Shown piece after piece: positions 33,927 through 50,617 of a DNA stretch of 64,000 bases. Origin of the DNA: a phage. The notes beneath the pieces are model-generated. The model made no database searches and had not been told where the DNA came from. It saw nothing but the letters and a program-made list of their open reading frames with translations. How positions within the stretch are numbered: the first letter of the stretch is position 1; the number at the start of each line of letters is the position of its first letter. The stretch is taken from NCBI GenBank assembly GCA_020241125.1, contig GCA_020241125.1_4708.1. One strand, written 5' to 3'. Both the position numbers and the translations under genes were made by a program.

Positions 33927-36836
33927 ATGAACGATATAAATAAAGGGCGCGTCGCCCTCGAACGTCAAATGAGCAATAATGACGTTGCGAAGGCACTCAT
34001 GAACAAATTTGTCGCTCCTGCTCCGCAGTCACGTCTTTATAATACACGTGATGCGGAAGGAGCGAACGGTCGTTTCGGGTTAGTTGTTCCCGACCAAATG
34101 ACGATGAACACGGTTACGCGTGCGACCGCGACAAACATCGAGGATAATAAAAACATCCTCGAGCTGTTCCCTGAACTTAAACGCGTGATGCAGATCTATG
34201 TTGCCGCGTTGACGAACCCTAACGATCTTAAGACGGTCGAGATGTTTATCGACAGCGAAGATTTCCCCGGCAGAGTCGCAGAAATCGTTCAGCCGATGAT
34301 CGATACCATCGACACGCATTTTAAGAATATCTATAAAATAAAGACGCTTATCCCTCGTATCATCGAAGACGTCTTCTTTATCAAGGGCAGTTATAACTTC
34401 GTTGTTCTGCCGGAAAGCACGCTCGACCGCGCCATTAATGGTAACGGTCAACTGAAACTTGAAGAATACGGATTTAAAGACAACCATTTTGCAAGTTGGG
34501 GGCTTCTAGGTAACGACAGTCGCAAACGCCACGAAAATCAATTACCTGCGACGGTTTCGATGGAAGATTATTTCTCGGGTGTTAATGAAACCATACCGTA
34601 CGATCCTGTTGTTCGCATAGACAGCATCAAGTTTACCAATACCCTGCTTCGCGATAAGGACGGTAAATTCATTGAAGCGAAGATCGATATTCCGGATATG
34701 GTTACGGTTGTCGATAACCCAGACATCCTCCGCATGCCTATTCTGCATCAACGTCGAGCAGCGACAGCAGTGCAGCGTGCGTTACGCGCAAACACGTTAG
34801 GAGGTAGTGGTTTGGTAACGCTGTCAGGCGATCCGACCCTAACCGCTAACCGACGTGAGCTGTCGCAAGAACAGGTTAACGAGATCTGGAATAAGCTCAA
34901 CATCCAGCGCCACACCAAGGTATCGCCCGTTTACGCGCTGGCAACCCCAGATACGCTTGATCGTCAAAGCGTTGGCCATCCTGGCGTGATGCATGTACCA
35001 CCTGAGGCATTAGAACCCGTACATGCGCCCGGTGATCCTGAGAACCATATCGGGTATTTGGTTCAGTTGGATGAGTTTGGTTATCCAGTACGTTTGGTTG
35101 AAGATGCGGCGTATTACAAGCAGTTGGAAGGTCGGTTGTCGAAGATCACCGCAGATATCGCAGGTACGTCAAGCAACGGCATGGCGAGCGAGATGATTGG
35201 TGCAGCCAAGAACATGATCCAAGGTACGTCATGTAATCAGGTAGACATGTCGGCCTTCGTATCATCGTACGAATCGCTGATGCAACGTTACATTGTCGAA
35301 CGTATCGTTAACGGTTATCTTGGCAGTGCGGTGGAGATCGGTGCGACATCATCGTTTTATCTGTCGATGCTTGCTCGTAGCCTCGCTCACAAGCAGACCC
35401 GTGTTTTGTTTATTCCTCGAGAGATGGTGACTTACATCGCCTATGAATACAACAAATACGGTATCGGTCGTTCGCTGCTTGAAAGTACGAAGATGATCTC
35501 ATCGCAACGAGCCATGCTCATGGTTCAAGAACTGATGGCGAAAATCAAAAGTTCGTTGAACTATACGACGCTAAGCGTAATGCTTGAAGACACCGACAGA
35601 AACCCGGTCGATACCGTCGAACAAGCACTGCATAGTTTCGCTCGTGTCTACCAGTCTGGTTTCCCGTTGGGTGAAACTAACCCGATGGATATCATCAACG
35701 CGTACGAACGAAGCTCGATTCGATTGAAGGTTGAGGGGAATAACCCACGCTTCCCGAAATTGAATACAGACGTCAGTGTTGAGCAGCGTAACTATCAGTC
35801 TCCTGATAATGAGCTGATGGATCGTTACCGTCGTGACCATTTCATGGGCTTGGGTGTGTCTCCGGAGATTATCGATACTTCCTACCAATCTGAATTCGCA
35901 GCTTCTGTGATTACAGCTAACGCGATGCAAGAGAAACAGTTCACGGTTTGTCGTGAGGTGATCACGAATGGGTTATCGGACCACATCAAGAAATATACGG
36001 CATACAGTCCCGTGTTGTTGACGTCGTTACGAAACACGGTTCGTGCGAACATGTCTAAGCTTTCCCAGGCACAATTGAAGCAGCTTTTTGGTAGCGATTT
36101 CGAAAACGGTGTTATCCGTAACGTTAACGCCTATCAGGAGATTGACGACCAATCAGCAACAATGGATCTGGATTACACTAAACCAGAAGTCCAGGAAGTT
36201 ATTGCCGATGCTTATGTGTCCATGTTCTTAAACAGCCTGCGTGTGCGTTTACCGGATAGCAATGCCCGTCGCCTTGAAGATCAGGTACGTGAATATAATC
36301 AGTACAAGGAAGCGATTACTGCGCAACTTGATGATTATTTAACGCCTGATTACGTCATGGGTCTGGGTGGGGTTGATGAAACAACGCTGCAGATGATCCG
36401 CGCATGCATTATTGGTACCGCGATGCGTACGTGGGCAAAAGAGAACAACTTCAATCAGGAGCTGGCTGATCTCTTCAGTCTTGACGATAAGAAGAATGCC
36501 GTGCAAGATTGGAAACGTATGTCCATGGAACATATTGAAGTCATGGGTAAATGCATGGGTGATTTTGCATTGTATATTCAGAATCTGACGAAGAAGATTG
36601 AAGAGAAGATGGGAGCTCAAGCACAGGACGGTAGCGTTTCATCTGATGGTTCGTGGTCATCCGATTCAAGTAGCGATACCGGTTCTTCTGATGACTTCGG
36701 TGGCGGTGACGATTTCGGAGATACCGATTTCGATACCGAAACGATGGAGGAAACCTCAACAGAAGAAACAACCACATCTGAGGAAACGACTACCGACACA
36801 ACGTCAGAAGACGATACTTCAGGTGACATTGTCTAA
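33927..36836 (+). CDS. large protein (969 aa) with acidic S/D/T/E-rich C-terminal tail
   Basis: ATG 33927 with AAGGAG RBS; last about 110 residues low-complexity acidic; ends before hairpin 36868-36902. Confidence 0.75.
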   Translation: MNDINKGRVALERQMSNNDVAKALMNKFVAPAPQSRLYNTRDAEGANGRFGLVVPDQMTMNTVTRATATNIEDNKNILELFPELKRVMQIYVAALTNPNDLKTVEMFIDSEDFPGRVAEIVQPMIDTIDTHFKNIYKIKTLIPRIIEDVFFIKGSYNFVVLPESTLDRAINGNGQLKLEEYGFKDNHFASWGLLGNDSRKRHENQLPATVSMEDYFSGVNETIPYDPVVRIDSIKFTNTLLRDKDGKFIEAKIDIPDMVTVVDNPDILRMPILHQRRAATAVQRALRANTLGGSGLVTLSGDPTLTANRRELSQEQVNEIWNKLNIQRHTKVSPVYALATPDTLDRQSVGHPGVMHVPPEALEPVHAPGDPENHIGYLVQLDEFGYPVRLVEDAAYYKQLEGRLSKITADIAGTSSNGMASEMIGAAKNMIQGTSCNQVDMSAFVSSYESLMQRYIVERIVNGYLGSAVEIGATSSFYLSMLARSLAHKQTRVLFIPREMVTYIAYEYNKYGIGRSLLESTKMISSQRAMLMVQELMAKIKSSLNYTTLSVMLEDTDRNPVDTVEQALHSFARVYQSGFPLGETNPMDIINAYERSSIRLKVEGNNPRFPKLNTDVSVEQRNYQSPDNELMDRYRRDHFMGLGVSPEIIDTSYQSEFAASVITANAMQEKQFTVCREVITNGLSDHIKKYTAYSPVLLTSLRNTVRANMSKLSQAQLKQLFGSDFENGVIRNVNAYQEIDDQSATMDLDYTKPEVQEVIADAYVSMFLNSLRVRLPDSNARRLEDQVREYNQYKEAITAQLDDYLTPDYVMGLGGVDETTLQMIRACIIGTAMRTWAKENNFNQELADLFSLDDKKNAVQDWKRMSMEHIEVMGKCMGDFALYIQNLTKKIEEKMGAQAQDGSVSSDGSWSSDSSSDTGSSDDFGGGDDFGDTDFDTETMEETSTEETTTSEETTTDTTSEDDTSGDIV

Positions 36837-36867
36837 ACGGATGTAAAAAAAAATAACACATAGTTAA

Positions 36868-36902
36868 CCTTCTCCCCAACCCGATGAGGGAAGGGGAGAA
36901 GG
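36868..36902. terminator. conserved hairpin, family copy 5
   Basis: CCTTCTCCCC-AACCC-GATGA-GGG-AA-GGGGAGAAGG with perfect 10-bp outer stem; A9 run at 36847-36855. Confidence 0.7.
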
Positions 36903-36922
36903 GCTATGCGCTATTTAATTTA

Positions 36923-37195
36923 TTACGAGGTTAACCACGATTCAATTGTGGTGAGTTTGCTTCTCAGTACGCGCCAACTAGGGTGTGGTGGGATCACAGC
37001 GCCTTTGTCGATTACGGTTAGCTGAACCTGGTACTTCTGTTGCATACGCGCTACCGTGTCGCTTATCGAGAGGAAAAGCTGGTAACGTTCATATGCCGTC
37101 AGTTCACTGTCCTGTTGAACTGCGTTGGCCGCTAACGTAATTTCGCGTAAGTCCTTTGCATCCACAGAGACGGTAATGAGTTTATATTGACTCAT
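36923..37195 (-). CDS. hypothetical protein (90 aa)
   Basis: ATG 37195 with AAGGAAA RBS. Confidence 0.55.
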   Translation of the reverse strand: MSQYKLITVSVDAKDLREITLAANAVQQDSELTAYERYQLFLSISDTVARMQQKYQVQLTVIDKGAVIPPHPSWRVLRSKLTTIESWLTS

Positions 37196-37256: not shown

Positions 37257-39815
37257 TTACTGCTCTTCACGTTCCAGCAGATACTCGGAAGCGGTAATAC
37301 CGTTTACCGTACGTACTGCTTTCAGACGAGTATCATCGCTCAGAATTACAGTAACAGATTGCAGACCTTTTACTTTGGTTTCGAAGGTCTTGAACACCTG
37401 ATCCAGCATACGAGCAATGCTTGGGTTGGTTGCAGCCGATGCGTGGGTGTAACCGCTTTGGTTCAGCTTCAGAATCTTGGCGTTGGTCGGTACGCGAACA
37501 ACAACATGCGGACGCATCGCGAACACGCTGTGATTGAACCAGTAAGCATCGTTGCTATCTTCGTCGGTAACGATGTCTGGATTAACACGCATATCCTCGA
37601 CAGCCGCATCCGCCAAACGACGTTCGATTTCATCGGCGTCCAGAGAGCCATCTTTCTCCAGTTCTGCACGATACTCACTCATGGCAACCAGATGACGTTC
37701 ACGATTCGCTGCGGATTTTTCGTGAGCGGCTTTCAGGTAGTCATGCATGTTGTACAGTTCTGCCATGGAAAGACGAATGTTCCACTGACCTTCGCCGTCA
37801 CGATTGCAGTAGAGACACTTCAGCATGTTGACCCAGGTATAGTAGCAATTGGAGAATTCATCTTCAATGAACTTCTGGTCCATTTTAAGATCGTGAATCA
37901 GCCAACCGGACAGTTCTCCGATATCATCAACGAAGCTAGAGATGGTGGTTTCAGAGAAGTTCTTCGGTACGATACGTTTGATCAGCTTATTGACGTCTTT
38001 GGTCATGCTATCGTTCAGGAAATGCCAAATACGCAGAGGAATAACATCTCGATACTGTTGCATGATCTGACGATAAGCTTTGATATCGTCGCTACGACCT
38101 TTATCAATAGACAACGCATCCAGGAATTCATGGATTGCATCCAGCTCTTTGTCGGTATAGGTTCCCAGATAGGAATTGACGGTGGCAAGGAATGCTAATG
38201 CGTCGTTTTGGTTAACGTCGGTGTTGGTCTGCTGAATGATTGCCACTGAAGCTTTGGTTTCAGCATCCTCAACGCTTGACGCTGCGATTGCGTCGGTGAC
38301 GGTAAACAGTTTCATTTCGCGCTGCTCACCGACAACGATTGGCTCACGTTGAACCGGTTTGTTAAGACTAACACGAACAACTTCTGCTTGCGCGATGCGA
38401 TCCAGTTTTGCCATTTCCTGCTCTGCCATACGACGAGCGGTTGGATCTGATTCAAGTTCGATGTATTCCACTTCTTCCTCCGTGAGGGATGTAATGTCAA
38501 CAATGGTTTCATGAAGAATTCCGTTTTCGTCGATACGTGCTCGACGAGCGAAGTGCCTGAAGTCATACAACGTCGGCCAACGACTATTAGGTGCAAAGTC
38601 TTTGGCTTTCAGACGCATCTGCATAAATTCTTCATGTTGAACAACACGACCGTAACGCTTAGCATCTTCGGTCGCATCAATTGGATTAACGGTCTTTGTT
38701 ACCGTAGCAGAACGAGCCGTACGAACGGGTTCCGGTTTCACCTGCGCAGGTTCAGGTTGAACGGGTTTCTGCTGCCCAGCCTTAACATGCCATTCTGGCT
38801 CTTCGTACTGCTCAGCAAATTGCTCAGCCGCTGCAAAGATATCGTTGATACCACCAATATCTCCTTCAGGATTTGTCGAGTAAATCCGTGGTTGTGGTGC
38901 CTCGTAACGCGGTGCTGTAGTAGCAGGTACCTCATCAACGATAGGATCGTCATCACCAACATCATACAAACGGTTGAACACACAATCCTTCGAATCAATG
39001 TACGATGGCGCTTGTGGTTGGACAACCGTCGGCCGAGGTTGTGCACCGTATCCTGGTGTTGTTGGAGCCATGCCGCGCATAACTGCCGGACTAGGTTGGT
39101 ATTGCGGTTGCGGATAGGTTCCACCATACATGGCGTACGCAGGCTGTTGTGGTTGACCATACCCGCTGCTAACCATCGCGCTTGCTTGCGGCCCACGATA
39201 AGTCATCCCCATCTGCATCACCTGCTGCTTCAAACCACGTGACTTCTGAGCGATTTGCGCTAGGCTTCCGCTTTTATTCAGCTGCGTGTACTTATTCGCG
39301 GCTTCCGGGTTAATGCGTGATAATTCAATCGCGCGATAATATTCCGGGTACTGATTCGGTTCAAAGAGCCACGTTACAAGATGATACAGCGCAACTGTAC
39401 TCACGGCAGCAGAGACGATCTGGTCATCGGACGCGTTCTGCGGCATCGGGTTGATGTAAGAGAACACGTTCCAACAACAGTCTTCAACAAGAGATTCCAT
39501 CATCATATCGTTATTGGTATAACGTGCGACGAACTCGGTTTGTATTTTGTCTTGCTGAGCGAAGTCTTTCAGGACATTAAAGATGGCTTGACGGATTTTG
39601 ACGATCGTCGCTTCTTGGGTGATGAAGTTATAGTTCTGCTGATATGAGGGTTGTTGGTATTGTGGTGGTTGATAGGCGTTATTCGGGTATGCGCCGTACG
39701 GCGATTGCTGATACTGTTGCTGACGAACCTGTTCAGCCGCATAATTAACCGTGCTCGTATAAGGGTTTTCGCTATAACCCATTTGTTGATACATGTTGTT
39801 ACTGCCATTATACAT
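37257..39815 (-). CDS. abundant (codon-optimised) 852-aa protein with Q/Y/P/N-rich low-complexity N-terminal region
   Basis: Strong codon bias; N-terminus YQQSPYGAYPNNAYQPPQYQQPSYQQNYN and a second block YGQPQQPAYAMYGGTYPQPQYQPSP. Confidence 0.8.
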   Translation of the reverse strand: MYNGSNNMYQQMGYSENPYTSTVNYAAEQVRQQQYQQSPYGAYPNNAYQPPQYQQPSYQQNYNFITQEATIVKIRQAIFNVLKDFAQQDKIQTEFVARYTNNDMMMESLVEDCCWNVFSYINPMPQNASDDQIVSAAVSTVALYHLVTWLFEPNQYPEYYRAIELSRINPEAANKYTQLNKSGSLAQIAQKSRGLKQQVMQMGMTYRGPQASAMVSSGYGQPQQPAYAMYGGTYPQPQYQPSPAVMRGMAPTTPGYGAQPRPTVVQPQAPSYIDSKDCVFNRLYDVGDDDPIVDEVPATTAPRYEAPQPRIYSTNPEGDIGGINDIFAAAEQFAEQYEEPEWHVKAGQQKPVQPEPAQVKPEPVRTARSATVTKTVNPIDATEDAKRYGRVVQHEEFMQMRLKAKDFAPNSRWPTLYDFRHFARRARIDENGILHETIVDITSLTEEEVEYIELESDPTARRMAEQEMAKLDRIAQAEVVRVSLNKPVQREPIVVGEQREMKLFTVTDAIAASSVEDAETKASVAIIQQTNTDVNQNDALAFLATVNSYLGTYTDKELDAIHEFLDALSIDKGRSDDIKAYRQIMQQYRDVIPLRIWHFLNDSMTKDVNKLIKRIVPKNFSETTISSFVDDIGELSGWLIHDLKMDQKFIEDEFSNCYYTWVNMLKCLYCNRDGEGQWNIRLSMAELYNMHDYLKAAHEKSAANRERHLVAMSEYRAELEKDGSLDADEIERRLADAAVEDMRVNPDIVTDEDSNDAYWFNHSVFAMRPHVVVRVPTNAKILKLNQSGYTHASAATNPSIARMLDQVFKTFETKVKGLQSVTVILSDDTRLKAVRTVNGITASEYLLEREEQ

Positions 39816-39849
39816 TTCTTACGATCCTTTTTATTTATTCGGTTATGTG

Positions 39850-41646
39850 TCAATCGATTATGTCGTGATCGTTAATTTCTACAATTTCTTCATCGAATCG
39901 ACCGACGTCTTTCTTCAAGCCTGCATTGGTTGCTGCAACGTCATTTGCAATTTGTGGGGTAATGATTAACCGACCGCGCTCATCGATAGGTGCGTACATA
40001 CTGAACTTCTGACGTCCGGTTGGTTCGGAGTGTGGAAGATTCAGATAGCTTGCACAGAACGGGATGGAACCACTAACCAAACGACTCTCGTCAGCCAATG
40101 CAGCACCGCCTGCGTTTTGGCTCTGGAGAACAACATGCGTGCTCACTTTGAACAGCATGCAATCACCTGGTGACTGAATCGATGTTGCCACTTTCTCACG
40201 TTTATCACGATTGCTCTGGATATTGAGAATCGCTTCCGTTGCAACTTGATTTCGCAACGCCTTCTGTACATCGCGATTGGTCATCTCTTTACGGTTGTTC
40301 TGTCGTTTACCACGTTCTGTGGTTTTAAGATGGAACCCCAGTTTAAAGATGCTCTTACGCACATCCTCCATGACATATTCCAACACCATCAATTCCTTAC
40401 CGAACATCGTCGTGGTATCAACACGACTCATTTCGATAGTGACATTGTCAATCAGATACGCCATAAATTCGTAGAAGTCGTCGCAAGGAATATTTTCCTG
40501 TTTGAACTTCTTCTGCTGAATCTCGTCAACGTAAAGATCGAGACTGTCGATGTGGTGATTTACATCACGTAACAAACGCGCATCCGCGTTGTTGTTATTA
40601 AAGATAATCAAACCGAGTAATGTACGCCAATGGTCTGGCGCATTCGCGAACTCCTCAACCGGATAGTCTTCCGGAAAACGATCGTAATAACGGTCGATGA
40701 GATACAAGAATGCACCGACAAGGCCAAGAACAATACGTTCCGTGCCTCCGCGTCTTACAGCAATTTGAATATCAGGATGTTTGTAACGTACAGCGCTAGC
40801 GCTACGGCTTTTACCGCTTTTGCTGATACTAAAGCCTTTAGGAATAACCCCCATGGTGCGATAGATTACCCATTGGTCACGCGGAAAATCGCGTTCAGCA
40901 AGGTTCCGTCCGGTTACGGCTTCGACACCTGCAAAACGTCGGAAACACTCACCCACCCCATACTTCGCAAAGAGATAGTGACCCAGTGTGGTTACGCTGG
41001 TGTGGTTGATGTTGTCACCGTTCACTTTACTTTGTTTAGTAAGATGGTAGATTTGCGACCAGGGTAACGACAGGTAATGACGATAATCGATACCGGTCGG
41101 TGTATCATTGCTCAGGAACTGATACGGTGTACGTTTAACCGTGATTTTGTCACGCGGAAGCATGATGAACGCCATGTCTTTCGTGTAACTGATTACCGGG
41201 TCAGCGAGCACTGCACTGAGAATGAAGTTCGCACCACGTAGACGCATTTTACCACCCTGACCTACCGCGGGTAATAGGAGAGGATGTCGGATAATGCAGT
41301 AGTCCTTTCCGGGTTCACGACGGTCACCTGATTCCATCGCGCCGTACCAGCGGAATTCTAGCATCACCATAAACACATCGGATGGCGCAAGGTCGAAGGT
41401 CAGCTTACCGCTATCCTTCCCTTTGGTTTTCTTTCCTCCGCTTAAGTAGTGGAACTGTTCGCGGGCCATACAGCGACGCAGGCCATGATACACCAGATCC
41501 TTAGGTAAACTATCTTTGCTGTTCCGCCAAAGACGATCAACATAGGACTCAACATCTTGCATCTTATCGACGACGATGTTGCGTGCTATCTTCTCGTTCA
41601 TCTTCGGTGCAAGCCCAGCGACAGCTTTGCAGAATCTAGGATCCAT
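39850..41646 (-). CDS. hypothetical virion-module protein (598 aa)
   Basis: ORF 39850-41649 begins with GTG; ATG 41646 with AAGGAG RBS. Confidence 0.75.
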   Translation of the reverse strand: MDPRFCKAVAGLAPKMNEKIARNIVVDKMQDVESYVDRLWRNSKDSLPKDLVYHGLRRCMAREQFHYLSGGKKTKGKDSGKLTFDLAPSDVFMVMLEFRWYGAMESGDRREPGKDYCIIRHPLLLPAVGQGGKMRLRGANFILSAVLADPVISYTKDMAFIMLPRDKITVKRTPYQFLSNDTPTGIDYRHYLSLPWSQIYHLTKQSKVNGDNINHTSVTTLGHYLFAKYGVGECFRRFAGVEAVTGRNLAERDFPRDQWVIYRTMGVIPKGFSISKSGKSRSASAVRYKHPDIQIAVRRGGTERIVLGLVGAFLYLIDRYYDRFPEDYPVEEFANAPDHWRTLLGLIIFNNNNADARLLRDVNHHIDSLDLYVDEIQQKKFKQENIPCDDFYEFMAYLIDNVTIEMSRVDTTTMFGKELMVLEYVMEDVRKSIFKLGFHLKTTERGKRQNNRKEMTNRDVQKALRNQVATEAILNIQSNRDKREKVATSIQSPGDCMLFKVSTHVVLQSQNAGGAALADESRLVSGSIPFCASYLNLPHSEPTGRQKFSMYAPIDERGRLIITPQIANDVAATNAGLKKDVGRFDEEIVEINDHDIID

Positions 41647-41685
41647 CACACACTCCTTTCAGAAAGTTGCTTAAGCAGATTAAAG

Positions 41686-43459: not shown

Positions 43460-45682
43460 TCAGTTAGTCTGAACAGGCAGCTTGATGTTTTCAGTGTAGA
43501 CCTTACGCAGGTTCACAACGTTAATCAGACCCAGCAGCGGGCAGTTGTTAACGAAGCGGCAGCGCGGCTGAACCATGGTTTCTTTAGAAACCTGACCGTT
43601 ACGGGTAACCTGAGCAACAGATACCAGTTCCGGTACATACAGGAACATACCGAAGGTCAGCGGATCCGGAGAACCCTGGATACCACGAGACAGGGTCACG
43701 AAGATCTTATCGCGCAGCATGACGTTCGGGTTATCTACAACTACGAAGTTGAAGCTTACACCAACGGTACGGAAATCACCATCGGTCTGCAGGAACTGCG
43801 GGATGTAGTTGTCAGTTGCTACTACGCAACGCGGTTTCTCATCAGCGTTGGAAGACAGCAGCTGCAGAGCTGGCTGATAACCAGACTCGGAGTACATGCG
43901 GTATGCCATCTCACGAATCACGTTCATGATCGCAGCAGACACTTCAGCACGACGTTCTGCAGTGGTGGTACCCTGAACAGATTTCTCCAGGTCCAGATTG
44001 ATTTCTTCGAACCACGGACGGATCAGGTAACGACCGAAACCTTCGATCTGGATGTCACCGAACTGACGGAAGCGAGAGGTCGCAACCGCTTTCAGTGCGT
44101 CTTTGTAGCTGAACAGTTTCTCAACCATCAGGTTGTCGAAACGTGCGTTAGCAGCTTGGATCAGAACGTCCAGGTCAGCAGCGTTTTCTTCCCAATCCAG
44201 CGGACGAGGAATGGAGAACGGAGCCAGCAGGCCGATTGCGTAACGTTCTTGCTTCATGTTGAAGTCAAGGTGCTTACCGCGCTCACGACGGTTGCTGTTG
44301 TTACGGCGGATACGCAGTTCGTAACCAACCAGTTTGAAGCTCAGGTCTTCAGCCAGTTGTTTGAACTCTTCGCTCTTACGCGGTTGTTCGATGTTGTCCT
44401 GATCAACCAGGCGATACAGTTCAGCGTTAGCGCCGTTAACACGCAGACCGGCTTTCTCTACGTTGGAAGAACCGTAAACTTCGATCGCCAGCTGAGCAGC
44501 AGATTTCGCATCGATGATGTCCTGCAGCGCTTCAGCTTTCGCGCCTTTAACGTCTTTGGTGTTCTCATCAACGAAGATGGAGTGGGTGTCGAACGCCAGG
44601 GTCATTTTGCGGAAGTCGCCTTCCAGGGATTTCTGGAAACCGTTGGTGATCAGACCAGATACGTCGAACGGTACGTAAGAGGTTTTGCTGTGCTTGGTAG
44701 ATTTGATTTCCACCAGGATTTTGGTCAGCGTGATCTGGGCGTCCAGCGCGTCGGTGTTGTCGCTGTAACCGTTAGCCAGGATGCTATCGTCTTCAGCAAT
44801 ACCGATCATGTCGATCAGTTTATCAACAGCCAGGTAAGACGTTTTGTAAGTTACGCCTTTAATTTCGATGTCGCGCGGAGCAACGATAGCTTTGTCAACG
44901 AAGTACTGTGCGTTAGCATCGTCAGCACGATAGATCGGATGCAGATCGGTCACGTCGTTGGACAGAACGTCGTTGTACATGAACGCATCCAGCAGCGGAC
45001 GACGTACCCAATCAGCCGGAGTACCGTCAGCGTTACGACGCAGGTGGTTGAACACCAGCGGACGACGGAAAGATACGTCGTAACCGATCTGGTTCGGAGC
45101 CAGAACGATGGTGTTGTACAGTTCGTTACCCATGCGGCTCAGACGAGAAGCCTTCACGTTGAACACAACGGAGTACGGCATCATGTCACGCAGTTCTTTC
45201 TGGTCGTAGGACAGCTGAACCAGTTCTTCAGATTCGCAACCGCAGGAATCAGCAGCCATCATGACGAAGTTAGAGCTGTCAACTTCACGGCCAGACGGAG
45301 TGGTGCTGATGTTCATGGAACGTGCTTGTTTAGCATATTCTACCGGGTTACCATGAGCCAGCATGATCAGTGCTGCTGCACGAGCCTGCTGTGCGTTCAT
45401 GGTGAACAGCTGTTCTTCAATACGCTGCTTCTCTTCCGGAGTGGTGGTTTCGAAGCCCAGCATGGACAGAACCGGTTCTTCGGCTTTACGGATGTCGCTG
45501 CTGAAGCTCTTAACATCCATTTCGTTAACCAGTTTGTCCATGGATTTGAAATCAACCTTAGAAGCAGATTCCATAGACAGGAAGGTGTTCTCCAGACCTT
45601 TGTCTGCTGGTTTGCTACCATTAGCGGTCAGGAACTGGCGAGTGGCCGCGACCTGTTGGCTAAGAAGGGTTTTATCATTCAT
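43460..45682 (-). CDS. candidate major capsid protein (740 aa)
   Basis: Strongest codon optimisation in the window, so the plus-strand ORF 43385-45685 is an antisense shadow; AAAGGA RBS; size fits jumbo-phage capsid proteins (recollection, not verified). Confidence 0.6.
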   Translation of the reverse strand: MNDKTLLSQQVAATRQFLTANGSKPADKGLENTFLSMESASKVDFKSMDKLVNEMDVKSFSSDIRKAEEPVLSMLGFETTTPEEKQRIEEQLFTMNAQQARAAALIMLAHGNPVEYAKQARSMNISTTPSGREVDSSNFVMMAADSCGCESEELVQLSYDQKELRDMMPYSVVFNVKASRLSRMGNELYNTIVLAPNQIGYDVSFRRPLVFNHLRRNADGTPADWVRRPLLDAFMYNDVLSNDVTDLHPIYRADDANAQYFVDKAIVAPRDIEIKGVTYKTSYLAVDKLIDMIGIAEDDSILANGYSDNTDALDAQITLTKILVEIKSTKHSKTSYVPFDVSGLITNGFQKSLEGDFRKMTLAFDTHSIFVDENTKDVKGAKAEALQDIIDAKSAAQLAIEVYGSSNVEKAGLRVNGANAELYRLVDQDNIEQPRKSEEFKQLAEDLSFKLVGYELRIRRNNSNRRERGKHLDFNMKQERYAIGLLAPFSIPRPLDWEENAADLDVLIQAANARFDNLMVEKLFSYKDALKAVATSRFRQFGDIQIEGFGRYLIRPWFEEINLDLEKSVQGTTTAERRAEVSAAIMNVIREMAYRMYSESGYQPALQLLSSNADEKPRCVVATDNYIPQFLQTDGDFRTVGVSFNFVVVDNPNVMLRDKIFVTLSRGIQGSPDPLTFGMFLYVPELVSVAQVTRNGQVSKETMVQPRCRFVNNCPLLGLINVVNLRKVYTENIKLPVQTN

Positions 45683-49629: not shown

Positions 49630-50532
49630 TTACTTAGTCTTCGAGTTACAAGGACTGACATGTTGTTGTACTCGTTGAATCGTATCGTAGTACGGGTTAG
49701 ATTGGTTGAACATGCTGTTGTGTGGATGATAGCCGTATGGCGCATTTTGCCTTGTTGATGAGAAACCTTGTTGAGAAGGACGATTTGAATTAACCGCGAG
49801 TACGTAGTAAACCAAATTTTGACGGTCGAACGTTCCTTCGTTTTTGAAGGTGTCGGCGTAGGTGTTTATCGCTGGAGCGAGTCTATCACCATCGGCGGTA
49901 ATAATTGTACCGTCTGGGTAAACTTCACGAACGACGCACCATGTTCCGATAAGAACGTCTTTGGGCGGCGTATTGCCGTATCCGGTTGTAACGGTAAGGT
50001 AAGTATCGAACCCTTCAGAACAACAAGGATGACGATAGATAGGTCCTGTCATTTCCGTTCTATCGGTATCGTCGCATTTCTCTATCGAGAGCGATGGTGT
50101 GTCGGTTTTGAAATTGTCAAATTCTTTCTTTAAGTCGATTACAGGTTCTTTCGTATAGTACTTCTTGATTGCTTTGACGTAAAGATCAGGAACGGTTGTC
50201 AGCATTCCGTTATACCTGATTCTCAGGTTTTCGAGTAATCCAAAGATACTCGCGCATGCTTGTTCGCGAGGTTTTGTAAGATAAGAGATCCCCCCAGGAA
50301 CGCTGGGATCTTTGAGAAAGAAGATTGCGTTATTGTCGTTGTGCAGTGCGTTGAAGAAAACGATTGATTCGATATATACGGAGCATAGGCTGTCGTTGGC
50401 GTCGTCAGATAACACCCAGATGCACTCATCGGTCGTCTTGTTTAAAAGTTCTGTTTTGTCCACCAAACGTTGTTTCATTGCGAGGAAATGTGCCTGTTGT
50501 TCAGCGGATAATTCACGATAAATAGTGGTCAT
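49630..50532 (-). CDS. hypothetical protein, tandem paralog of 50618-51391
   Basis: ORF 49630-50610; ATG 50532 with AAGGAG RBS; IYRHPCCSEGFDTYLTVTTGYG ... VREVYPDGTII aligns with IYIHPECHTTYDRYLTITGG ... IREIYPDGRIV. Confidence 0.7.
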   Translation of the reverse strand: MTTIYRELSAEQQAHFLAMKQRLVDKTELLNKTTDECIWVLSDDANDSLCSVYIESIVFFNALHNDNNAIFFLKDPSVPGGISYLTKPREQACASIFGLLENLRIRYNGMLTTVPDLYVKAIKKYYTKEPVIDLKKEFDNFKTDTPSLSIEKCDDTDRTEMTGPIYRHPCCSEGFDTYLTVTTGYGNTPPKDVLIGTWCVVREVYPDGTIITADGDRLAPAINTYADTFKNEGTFDRQNLVYYVLAVNSNRPSQQGFSSTRQNAPYGYHPHNSMFNQSNPYYDTIQRVQQHVSPCNSKTK

Positions 50533-50617
50533 GTTGAGCTCCTTGATTACGATAAGGATGATTGCGGTTTTGTGATGCTGGTAGGGCCCTAAACAAAGGA
50601 GCCCTACCAATATTGGG

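Follow-up and report, generated by a model that had tools for sequence, protein, structure and literature searches.

A Goslar-type ortholog of JADA with a Tyr/Gln-rich N-terminal tail and a Tyr-rich linker of low complexity

The stretch of DNA analysed in this work (hereafter the window, 64,000 nucleotides long) comes from a close relative of Escherichia phage Goslar (genus Goslarvirus), a phage that is treated as a chimallivirus (PMC10299810). The gene under study, an open reading frame (ORF) on the minus strand whose Goslar counterpart is Goslar_00038, is by profile comparison and synteny an ortholog of JADA (PHIKZ124, RAY gp4, Pa36 gp316). Its product carries two uncharged low-complexity (LC) blocks, one forming the N-terminal tail (LC1) and the other the first part of an interdomain linker (LC2), and the best overall explanation, to which we assign a probability of about 0.6, is that it is a Goslar-type JADA whose selected, disordered LC tail and linker act as sticker-spacer tethers.

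The reading frame given in the original prediction was recovered in full, on the minus strand and with a Shine-Dalgarno-like element in front of its ATG (Table 1); since the N-terminus MYNG..NN is kept in homologs down to 80% identity, this first ATG is supported as the start. The claim that the gene is codon-optimised like the capsid candidate goes too far: its codon adaptation index (CAI, computed with the weights of Sharp & Li 1987) is fairly high, 0.41 (rank 5 of the 42 window ORFs; effective number of codons, ENC, 44.9), but lies far below that of the capsid gene (43460..45682; CAI 0.75, ENC 30.1). A scan for sigma-70 promoters and terminators gave no signal above shuffled expectation.

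Table 1. Features of the JADA-type gene, of its product and of the adjoining co-directional genes (positions in the window).
Feature	Position	Strand	Description	Basis
Coding sequence	37257..39815	(-)	852 aa; ATG start; stop codon 37257-37259; Goslar_00038-type JADA ortholog	ORF listing
Shine-Dalgarno-like AAGGA	39825..39829	(-)	9 nt upstream of ATG	read from sequence
LC1	39627..39815	(-)	aa 1-63; uncharged Q/Y/N/P-rich N-terminal tail, predicted disordered	composition, shuffles, pLDDT
N-terminal helical domain	39201..39626	(-)	aa 64-205	AlphaFold2 helices 56-201; pLDDT 58-76 over aa 61-150
LC2	39000..39200	(-)	aa 206-272; uncharged P/Q/Y/G/A-rich, first part of interdomain linker	composition, shuffles, pLDDT
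Linker part 2	38661..38999	(-)	aa 273-385; acidic, Pro/Ala-rich, predicted disordered bar one short helix	composition; pLDDT 24-36
Linker motif	38787..38855	(-)	aa 321-343, GGINDIFAAAEQFAEQYEEPEWH	amphipathic helix, acidic run, then P-x-W/F
C-terminal domain	37260..38660	(-)	aa 386-852; homologous to JADA C-terminal domain (PDB 9RP3 dimer)	hhalign, HMM, alignment
nvRNAP beta subunit (phiKZ gp123-like)	39850..41649	(-)	599 aa; upstream, co-directional; 34 nt from JADA ATG	PHROG 2943, E 1e-119
Small downstream gene (Goslar_00037)	36923..37195	(-)	90 aa; co-directional	ORF listing

The protein is 98.7% identical in amino acids to Goslar_00038 (QBO63831, annotated as 'hypothetical'), and tblastn returned matches in Goslar only. 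An exhaustive search with a hidden Markov model (HMM) over 1.84 billion representatives yielded only three, namely the Goslar clade, a metagenomic relative (P0005, 33% identical) and one fragment. A word-indexed search with the full-length query returned Goslar-clade proteins only, and searches with alignments gave seven matches (15-sequence full-length alignment) or three (C-terminal part alone); in the two alignment searches the matches are few probably because low-complexity words swamped the list of candidates (8,000 for the full-length alignment). A Pfam match to Cas9_C_2, found in 2 of 15 members and scoring 18.6 bits (E 0.0017) where the cut-off is 27, was rejected as chance.

The relationship to JADA is based on gene order and on the comparison of profiles. 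The same succession of genes (capsid gene, two genes, the beta subunit of the non-virion RNA polymerase (nvRNAP), JADA, a small gene and a convergent portal-like gene) is found in the window, in the loci L002, L023 and L024, in RAY, in a phiKZ-like phage, in 201phi2-1 and in nine further jumbo phages. The JADA position is occupied by a hypothetical protein of 690-890 residues in RAY, the phiKZ-like phage, 201phi2-1, PA1C, Noxifer, Psa21 and Xoo-sp14, and likewise in AH06, SA002, pEa_SNUABM_37, Proteus phage 10 and nine further jumbo phages. The nvRNAP beta protein, which tblastn finds in 235 phages, is annotated as such in RAY, PA1C and fMGyn-Pae01, and in the published description the JADA gene invariably lies directly 3' of an nvRNAP subunit gene (PMC12931631). 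With its match to Goslar and with a PhiKZ-type capsid and an nvRNAP as neighbours, the window offers the setting of a chimallin phage.

When the clades were compared by hhalign, the Goslar clade aligned with the phiKZ gp124 clade (98.9%, E 1e-17, 249 columns of the C-terminal parts) and with the RAY gp4 clade (96.5%, E 1e-9), and the latter two aligned with each other (98.6%, E 5e-16). An HMM of the JADA C-terminal domain built without the Goslar clade picked out this ORF alone among 315 stop-to-stop ORFs (E 5.6e-16, the next being 0.83). Additionally, Foldseek against BFVD placed the syntenic protein RisingSun gp86 among the best matches (E 6e-7), and in Prichard et al. 2023 a supplementary table of homologs assigns Goslar_00038 to the column that holds RAY gp4 and PHIKZ124. 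The C-terminal-domain profile also matches PDB 9RP3 ('Gp316/JADA'), a result that is circular, the profile including a phiKZ-type sequence; a single-sequence phmmer search of the PDB gave no match.

JADA as a kind of protein is already known. The name was given to Pa36 gp316 by Muralidharan et al. (Mol Cell 2026; PMC12931631), whose structure is PDB 9RP3 and who used 75 homologs, and in that work the JADA proteins of Pseudomonas phages are described as early, very abundant and essential. At 10 min PHIKZ124 is an abundant protein, found at early phage infection (EPI) vesicles; mScarlet-JADA of Pa36, diffuse prior to infection, gathers in foci at EPI vesicles only afterwards. The protein dimerises through its C-terminal domain into a rigid homodimer (recombinant Pa36 JADA being a soluble dimer). 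On its own, the C-terminal domain of Pa36 JADA is toxic and sets off the Sir2 NADase of Avs5, a STAND NTPase. The authors state that the molecular function is unknown, propose a role in early transcription, and describe the non-globular part just as a long stretch that is disordered or flexible (PMC12931631). When PhiKZ124 is knocked down by antisense, fewer plaques form, ChmA falls and phage transcription is strongly disturbed at 30 min (Gerovac et al., Nature 2025; PMC12571901). A table in the latter paper puts PhiKZ124 under 'non-core genome' despite the family-wide conserved position of the gene, likely because rapid sequence divergence keeps it from passing the 90% presence criterion. Binding of PHIKZ124 to host DnaX/FtsZ complexes is ascribed to Van den Bossche et al. 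2014, here second-hand, as cited by PMC11849849. The early timing, abundance, essentiality, EPI-vesicle location and Avs5 activation would be expected of the Goslar protein by transfer from the Pa36 and phiKZ orthologs; a literature search retrieved no functional report on Goslar gp38, QBO63831 or PhiPA3 gp140. Two papers name proteins that share a number with members of this family and are unrelated to it: the 'gp38' of the EPI-vesicle preprint is phiKZ gp38, and the 'gp204' of the ChmC paper is PhiPA3 gp204.

The architecture predicted for the Goslar-type protein (a helical N-terminal domain, a long disordered linker and a partly confident C-terminal domain) is the layout of the JADA family. 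AlphaFold2 was run twice, with alignments 5-9 sequences deep, and gave a mean predicted local distance difference test score (pLDDT) of 37.5 and 46.4; such models are usable for order, disorder and helices, and too poor for fold superposition. By position, the counterpart of the N-terminal helical domain is the N-terminal domain of JADA (in Pa36, aa 1-170), the hhalign matches of these domains between clades being colinear but non-significant (E 0.14-0.4), and LC2 corresponds to the 'long disordered or flexible region' of Pa36 JADA (170-270). In the Goslar clade the C-terminal domain has an insertion of ~50 residues. The family alignment of this domain contains conserved blocks and a C-terminal h-I-T-x-D-G motif, and only N609 and D827 are invariant in alignments of 15-16 family sequences. 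In a Foldseek search of 350,542 PDB chains with the second model, the top two were 9rp3_B and 9rp3_A (E 0.014 and 0.020; probability 0.96 and 0.90), with a low template modelling (TM) score of 0.21 which is due to the poor structure model.

The second part of the linker (aa 273-385) has a net charge per residue of -0.11 and contains a motif, also written NDIFAAAEQFAEQYEEPEWH, in which an amphipathic helix (aa 323-336 in the AlphaFold2 model) is followed by an acidic run and then by P/A-x-W/F. The pattern is common to P0005, P0010 and the whole RAY/SA002/Proteus-10 clade (for example SLEEEENEEPMFNIP and EEEALFNPP); a pattern search for P-x-W/F did not find it among the Pseudomonas clade. We regard aa 321-343 as a candidate docking motif. 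A second acidic element, YDVGDDDPIV (38937-38966, minus strand, aa 284-293), lies after LC2 and has a counterpart, FDYDEDDVIGI, in P0005. It loosely resembles the acidic C-terminal tip of E. coli SSB, which is DFDDDIPF; being internal and clade-restricted, the likeness is probably a coincidence.

Both Q/Y/P/N-rich blocks to which the original prediction had drawn attention are present, with the peptides quoted there located at aa 35-63 (YQQSPYGAYPNNAYQPPQYQQPSYQQNYN) and aa 219-243 (YGQPQQPAYAMYGGTYPQPQYQPSP). LC1 is made up of Q (22%), Y (19%), N (14%) and P (10%), with 5% of charged residues, and LC2 of P (19%), Q (15%), Y (12%), G (12%) and A (12%), with 4%. In 20,000 shuffled versions of the protein (mean 0.46, maximum 0.70), the highest observed Q+Y+P+N fraction in 30 residues, 0.83, was never attained, the bias of LC2 was likewise reached by 0 of 20,000, and the Q+Y+P+N content is the extreme among the 42 large ORFs of the window (runner-up 0.53). 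No tandem DNA repeat was found under the LC regions, so the bias is not a slippage artefact. The disorder suggested as a check is indeed what is predicted: pLDDT is ~25-35 at aa 1-54 and aa 208-378 in the two AlphaFold2 runs, LC1 has values of 27-36 together with a FoldIndex-type score of -0.28, and LC2 has ~25 together with a negative score.

Low complexity is a recurrent property of the family. We applied one low-complexity mask for uncharged polar segments to a sample of 29 proteins from the JADA position, and found an N-terminal LC segment (starting within the first 30 residues) in 25 and an LC block between the N- and C-terminal domains (of Q/P/G/M/Y types) in 21, while the same mask flags 2 of the 42 window ORFs. 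The hydrophobic or polar residues that accompany the tracts vary with the lineage: Tyr in the Goslar clade (13% of LC residues), Met, Tyr or Phe in the RAY-like clade (for example MYPPQMMMAQGGLYPQQGMYPQQQMMQPP, MYQQFPQQPQYPQQP and QPQFQQPQFQPQFQQ), Gly/Met/Gln in Pseudomonas phages, and Asn/Gln/Gly in AVP1 (Aeromonas) and the OBP type. Within the Goslar clade, the length of LC1 varies through indels and its composition is retained. The ratio of nonsynonymous to synonymous substitution rates (dN/dS), computed against the homologs P0003 and P0004 (dS 0.7-1.7), is 0.10-0.14 for LC1 and 0.09-0.11 for LC2, the folded domains giving 0.10 (C-terminal, P0004) and 0.14 (N-terminal); values of about 0.1 indicate that both blocks are under purifying selection as strong as that acting on the folded domains.

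The Goslar protein shares with phiKZ-type JADA the position after nvRNAP beta, the direction, the homologous C-terminal domain, the layout and the family Chimalliviridae, but the two are only ~17% identical and the Goslar protein is 131 residues longer, adding the 63-residue Tyr/Gln tail, a linker richer in Tyr and Pro, and the ~50-residue insertion in the C-terminal domain. The RAY gp4 clade (Erwinia, Salmonella and Proteus jumbo phages) has in common with it the synteny, the architecture, an N-terminal uncharged Q/P tail, a second Q/P block and the acidic P/A-x-F/W linker motif; there, however, Met and Phe, not Tyr, are the main LC hydrophobics (for example MYPPQMMMAQGGLYPQQGMYPQQQMMQPP and QPQFQQPQFQPQFQQ). 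The gene is a further member of a kind described in 2026, distinguished by its Tyr/Gln tail, its Tyr-rich linker and its C-terminal-domain insertion. The lineage-varying sticker and the linker motif add to the published description of the family, and the three distinguishing traits, like the family-wide recurrence of selected LC tracts, are unreported in the literature searched: PMC12931631 has no mention of low complexity, condensates or phase separation, a search for 'chimallin' together with 'condensate' returned only work and reviews on ChmC, and a broad condensate search returned no phage papers.

The prion-like character given to LC1 in the original prediction, to which a FUS-like one can be added, holds at the level of composition, since LC1 is uncharged, Q/N/Y/G/S-biased and predicted disordered. 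Its 12 Tyr are regularly placed, with an aromatic spacing of 5.5 +/- 1.7 residues; the value calculated for the LC domain of FUS, 6.7 +/- 2.5, is similar. With the LC domains of FUS and EWS and with Sup35 N, the Goslar blocks share an uncharged Q/N/Y/G/S/P-rich composition, regular Tyr and predicted disorder; nevertheless, they are much shorter (63 and 67 residues), contain more Pro and are joined to no RNA-binding domain, so that the likeness is one of composition only. The multiple FG repeats (FxFG/GLFG) of FG-nucleoporin-like barrier proteins are absent, as aa 1-63 and 206-272 contain no Phe and no FG dipeptide, their aromatic residue being Tyr; a single Phe (F64, in NFIT) falls within LC1 as extended by the mask (aa 1-73). 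LC2 resembles in composition the P/Q- or G/Q/P-rich linkers of bacterial proteins such as the SSB tail, ZipA and FtsK, which are poorer in Tyr. P/Q-rich spacers of this sort are known from ZipA, FtsK, TonB and the SSB tail. Within chimalliviruses, the only protein tied to condensates in the literature searched is ChmC, which binds RNA, is associated with the nucleus and condenses together with RNA (Enustun et al. 2024, PMC11077065); ChmC and JADA are both early proteins of the same virus family, but ChmC is presumably an unrelated protein and is encoded at a different gene position.

In the mechanism that we favour, the LC tail and linker would be flexible sticker-spacer tethers that weakly self-associate or bind partners, giving the C-terminal dimer reach and multivalency, and they would thereby help to enrich the EPI vesicle or the nascent nucleus in JADA and in whatever its N-terminal domain and its linker motif bind. 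Condensation driven by the LC blocks is plausible on the grounds of their composition. Several observations weigh against this explanation. On the side of identity, the structure model is poor (mean pLDDT 46) and its match to 9RP3 has a TM score of only 0.21, and the Goslar-clade HMM, although ranking 9rp3 first in the PDB, does so with an E of only 1.3. As regards the tracts, four of the 29 family members (Xoo-sp14, Centimanus, SPLA10 and Kodama) have no LC block by the mask, and P0005 and P0010, 33% identical, lack the Tyr-rich N-tail, having a short N/G/Q tract and much weaker blocks. Within the Goslar clade, Tyr is not significantly more conserved than the other LC residues (18 of 20 against 80 of 110 invariant, p = 0.16), and the sticker-spacer role proposed for the Goslar protein derives from composition. 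Finally, the diffuse distribution of mScarlet-JADA before infection implies that the linker of the Pa36 ortholog drives no autonomous condensation at the level used, and the activation of Avs5 and the toxicity obtained with the Pa36 C-terminal domain alone imply that these activities need no LC region. The original prediction had regarded homologs lacking the LC segment as a test of its importance, and the outcome is divided: the N-terminal block is retained in 25 of 29 members, but it is the Tyr-rich tail that P0005 and P0010 lack, and four members are blockless. These losses, together with the sufficiency of the Pa36 C-terminal domain for Avs5, make the Tyr-rich tail a clade-specific trait and not a requirement of the family.

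The main rival to sticker-spacer tethers, a possible reading that we nevertheless consider the less probable one, is that the blocks are passive spacers, LC2 being an entropic P/Q linker and LC1 a dispensable tail, with no self-association. The authors who described JADA call the region simply a disordered or flexible linker (PMC12931631), the composition varies with the lineage and some members have no block, and LC2 combines 19% Pro with a negative prion-propensity score. The behaviour of Pa36 JADA, diffuse without infection and able to trigger Avs5 through its C-terminal domain alone, fits passive spacers too, as do the weak, non-significant profile matches (E 6.6 and 9) that LC2 gives with the SSB tail of E. 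coli, which suggest likeness to an ordinary linker; as PDB hits, these matches were rejected as compositional. However, dN/dS of about 0.1 in both blocks suggests a constraint beyond what a spacer needs, 18 of 20 Tyr are retained while spacer residues and length change, LC1 is terminal and joins nothing, and aromatic or Met residues recur in polar tracts across clades.

In a bolder version of the tether explanation, which we hold to be speculative and unlikely, the uncharged LC tail and linker, studded with aromatic residues or Met and retained in most JADA proteins, would turn JADA into the scaffold of a liquid-like layer that surrounds the EPI vesicle or the nascent nucleus, with the dimer providing valency and the LC tracts the stickers. 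If this were true, early mRNAs, ribosomes and freshly synthesised nvRNAP and shell subunits would gather in the layer, the hand-over from vesicle to protein-shelled nucleus would depend on it, JADA would correspond in phages to the disordered scaffolds found in the factories of eukaryotic viruses, and it would be this condensate that Avs5 guards.

It is rather doubtful that the linker serves mainly to dock host factors through short linear motifs (for proteins such as the replisome clamp-loader, FtsZ or SSB partners), with the LC sequence doing no more than presenting them, a role that would be compatible with sticker-spacer tethers. The association of PHIKZ124 with DnaX/FtsZ, known second-hand through PMC11849849, and the amphipathic-acidic-P-x-W/F linker motif conserved in the Goslar and RAY clades both point in this direction, and so does the loose likeness of YDVGDDDPIV and FDYDEDDVIGI to the SSB tip. 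But the SSB-like element, which occurs only in the Goslar, P0005 and P0010 lineages, lies inside the protein and so lacks a free C-terminus, and the P-x-W/F pattern was not found in the Pseudomonas clade.

An amyloid-forming prion domain, the other form of assembly raised in the original prediction, is unlikely, and we give very little credence to LC1 being a true prion domain that forms a cross-beta scaffold during infection. Its composition is like that of the yeast Sup35 N domain and the FUS LC domain, and a home-made PAPA-like score (approximate weights, threshold 0.05) is 0.16 for LC1, in a FoldIndex-negative region, and negative for LC2. The criterion of Michelitsch and Weissman asks for at least 30 Q+N per 80 residues. 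The window protein has 26, below that figure, whereas P0003 and P0004 reach 30; in addition, Pro makes up 10% of LC1 and 19% of LC2, the tail is just ~60 residues long, and the tract is missing in the 33%-identical P0005 and P0010. An infection lasting tens of minutes and an essential, abundant protein would also disfavour a slow nucleated conversion, and recombinant Pa36 JADA was purified as a soluble dimer (PMC12931631).

That the protein is a head-assembly component (scaffold or virion protein) is highly improbable: the gene lies 3.6 kb from the major capsid gene and adjoins a convergent gene for a 969-aa protein of PHROG 3004 ('virion structural'; portal in Proteus phage 10), and its product is helical and fairly codon-adapted, but no PHROG or Pfam structural family matches the JADA-type protein, its orthologs are without the virion label that their neighbours carry, and PHIKZ124 is abundant at 10 min at EPI vesicles. 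The evidence on virion status is at the level of ortholog annotation. The 201phi2-1 protein gp204 has no note 'virion protein by mass spectrometry', which gp200, gp211 and gp212 have, RAY gp4 is 'hypothetical' beside the 'virion structural' gp6-8, and in Churi the ortholog gp199 figures among the non-structural proteins that are present at 15 min. Contrary to the original prediction, therefore, which had placed the gene in a phage structural module, it travels with the upstream nvRNAP beta gene and is an ortholog of the early protein JADA/PHIKZ124, and it should not carry a structural-protein annotation.

Nucleus-forming jumbo phages cannot do without JADA, and it is JADA that triggers Avs5, an immune sensor that bacteria dedicate to it. 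As Goslar infects E. coli, the placing of its gene in this family makes available an ortholog tractable in that host.

One of the homologs is a mosaic. In P0003 (L024:6001-8592), LC1, the N-terminal domain and LC2 are like those of P0004 (L023:6001-8592), with dS >1 against the window, and the C-terminal domain is nearly identical to that of the window (dS 0.09), the switch lying inside the disordered linker. This suggests a recombination that swapped the N-terminal module against the C-terminal domain.

As regards the neighbouring genes, a small gene (90-146 aa) follows JADA in most of the relatives examined (among them L002, RAY, 201phi2-1 and PA1C). Between the one in the window and the convergent PHROG 3004 gene (33927..36836, plus strand), at ~36845-36903, lies a G+C-rich hairpin (ccttctcccc … ggggagaagg) with a T-run; absent from the list of the consensus scan, it may terminate transcription in both directions and so close the gp40-gp37 transcription unit. 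The protein of the convergent gene ends in a low-complexity tail of its own, its last ~70 residues being very acidic and Ser/Asp/Thr/Glu-rich (…SSDGSWSSDSSSDTGSSDDFGGGDDFGDTDFDTETMEETSTEETTTSEETTTDTTSEDDTSGDIV). The only other window ORF flagged by the mask, at 49630-50610 on the minus strand (326 aa), has a short Tyr/Asn/Gln-rich segment near its C-terminus (aa 284-316, SSTRQNAPYGYHPHNSMFNQSNPYYDTIQRVQQ).

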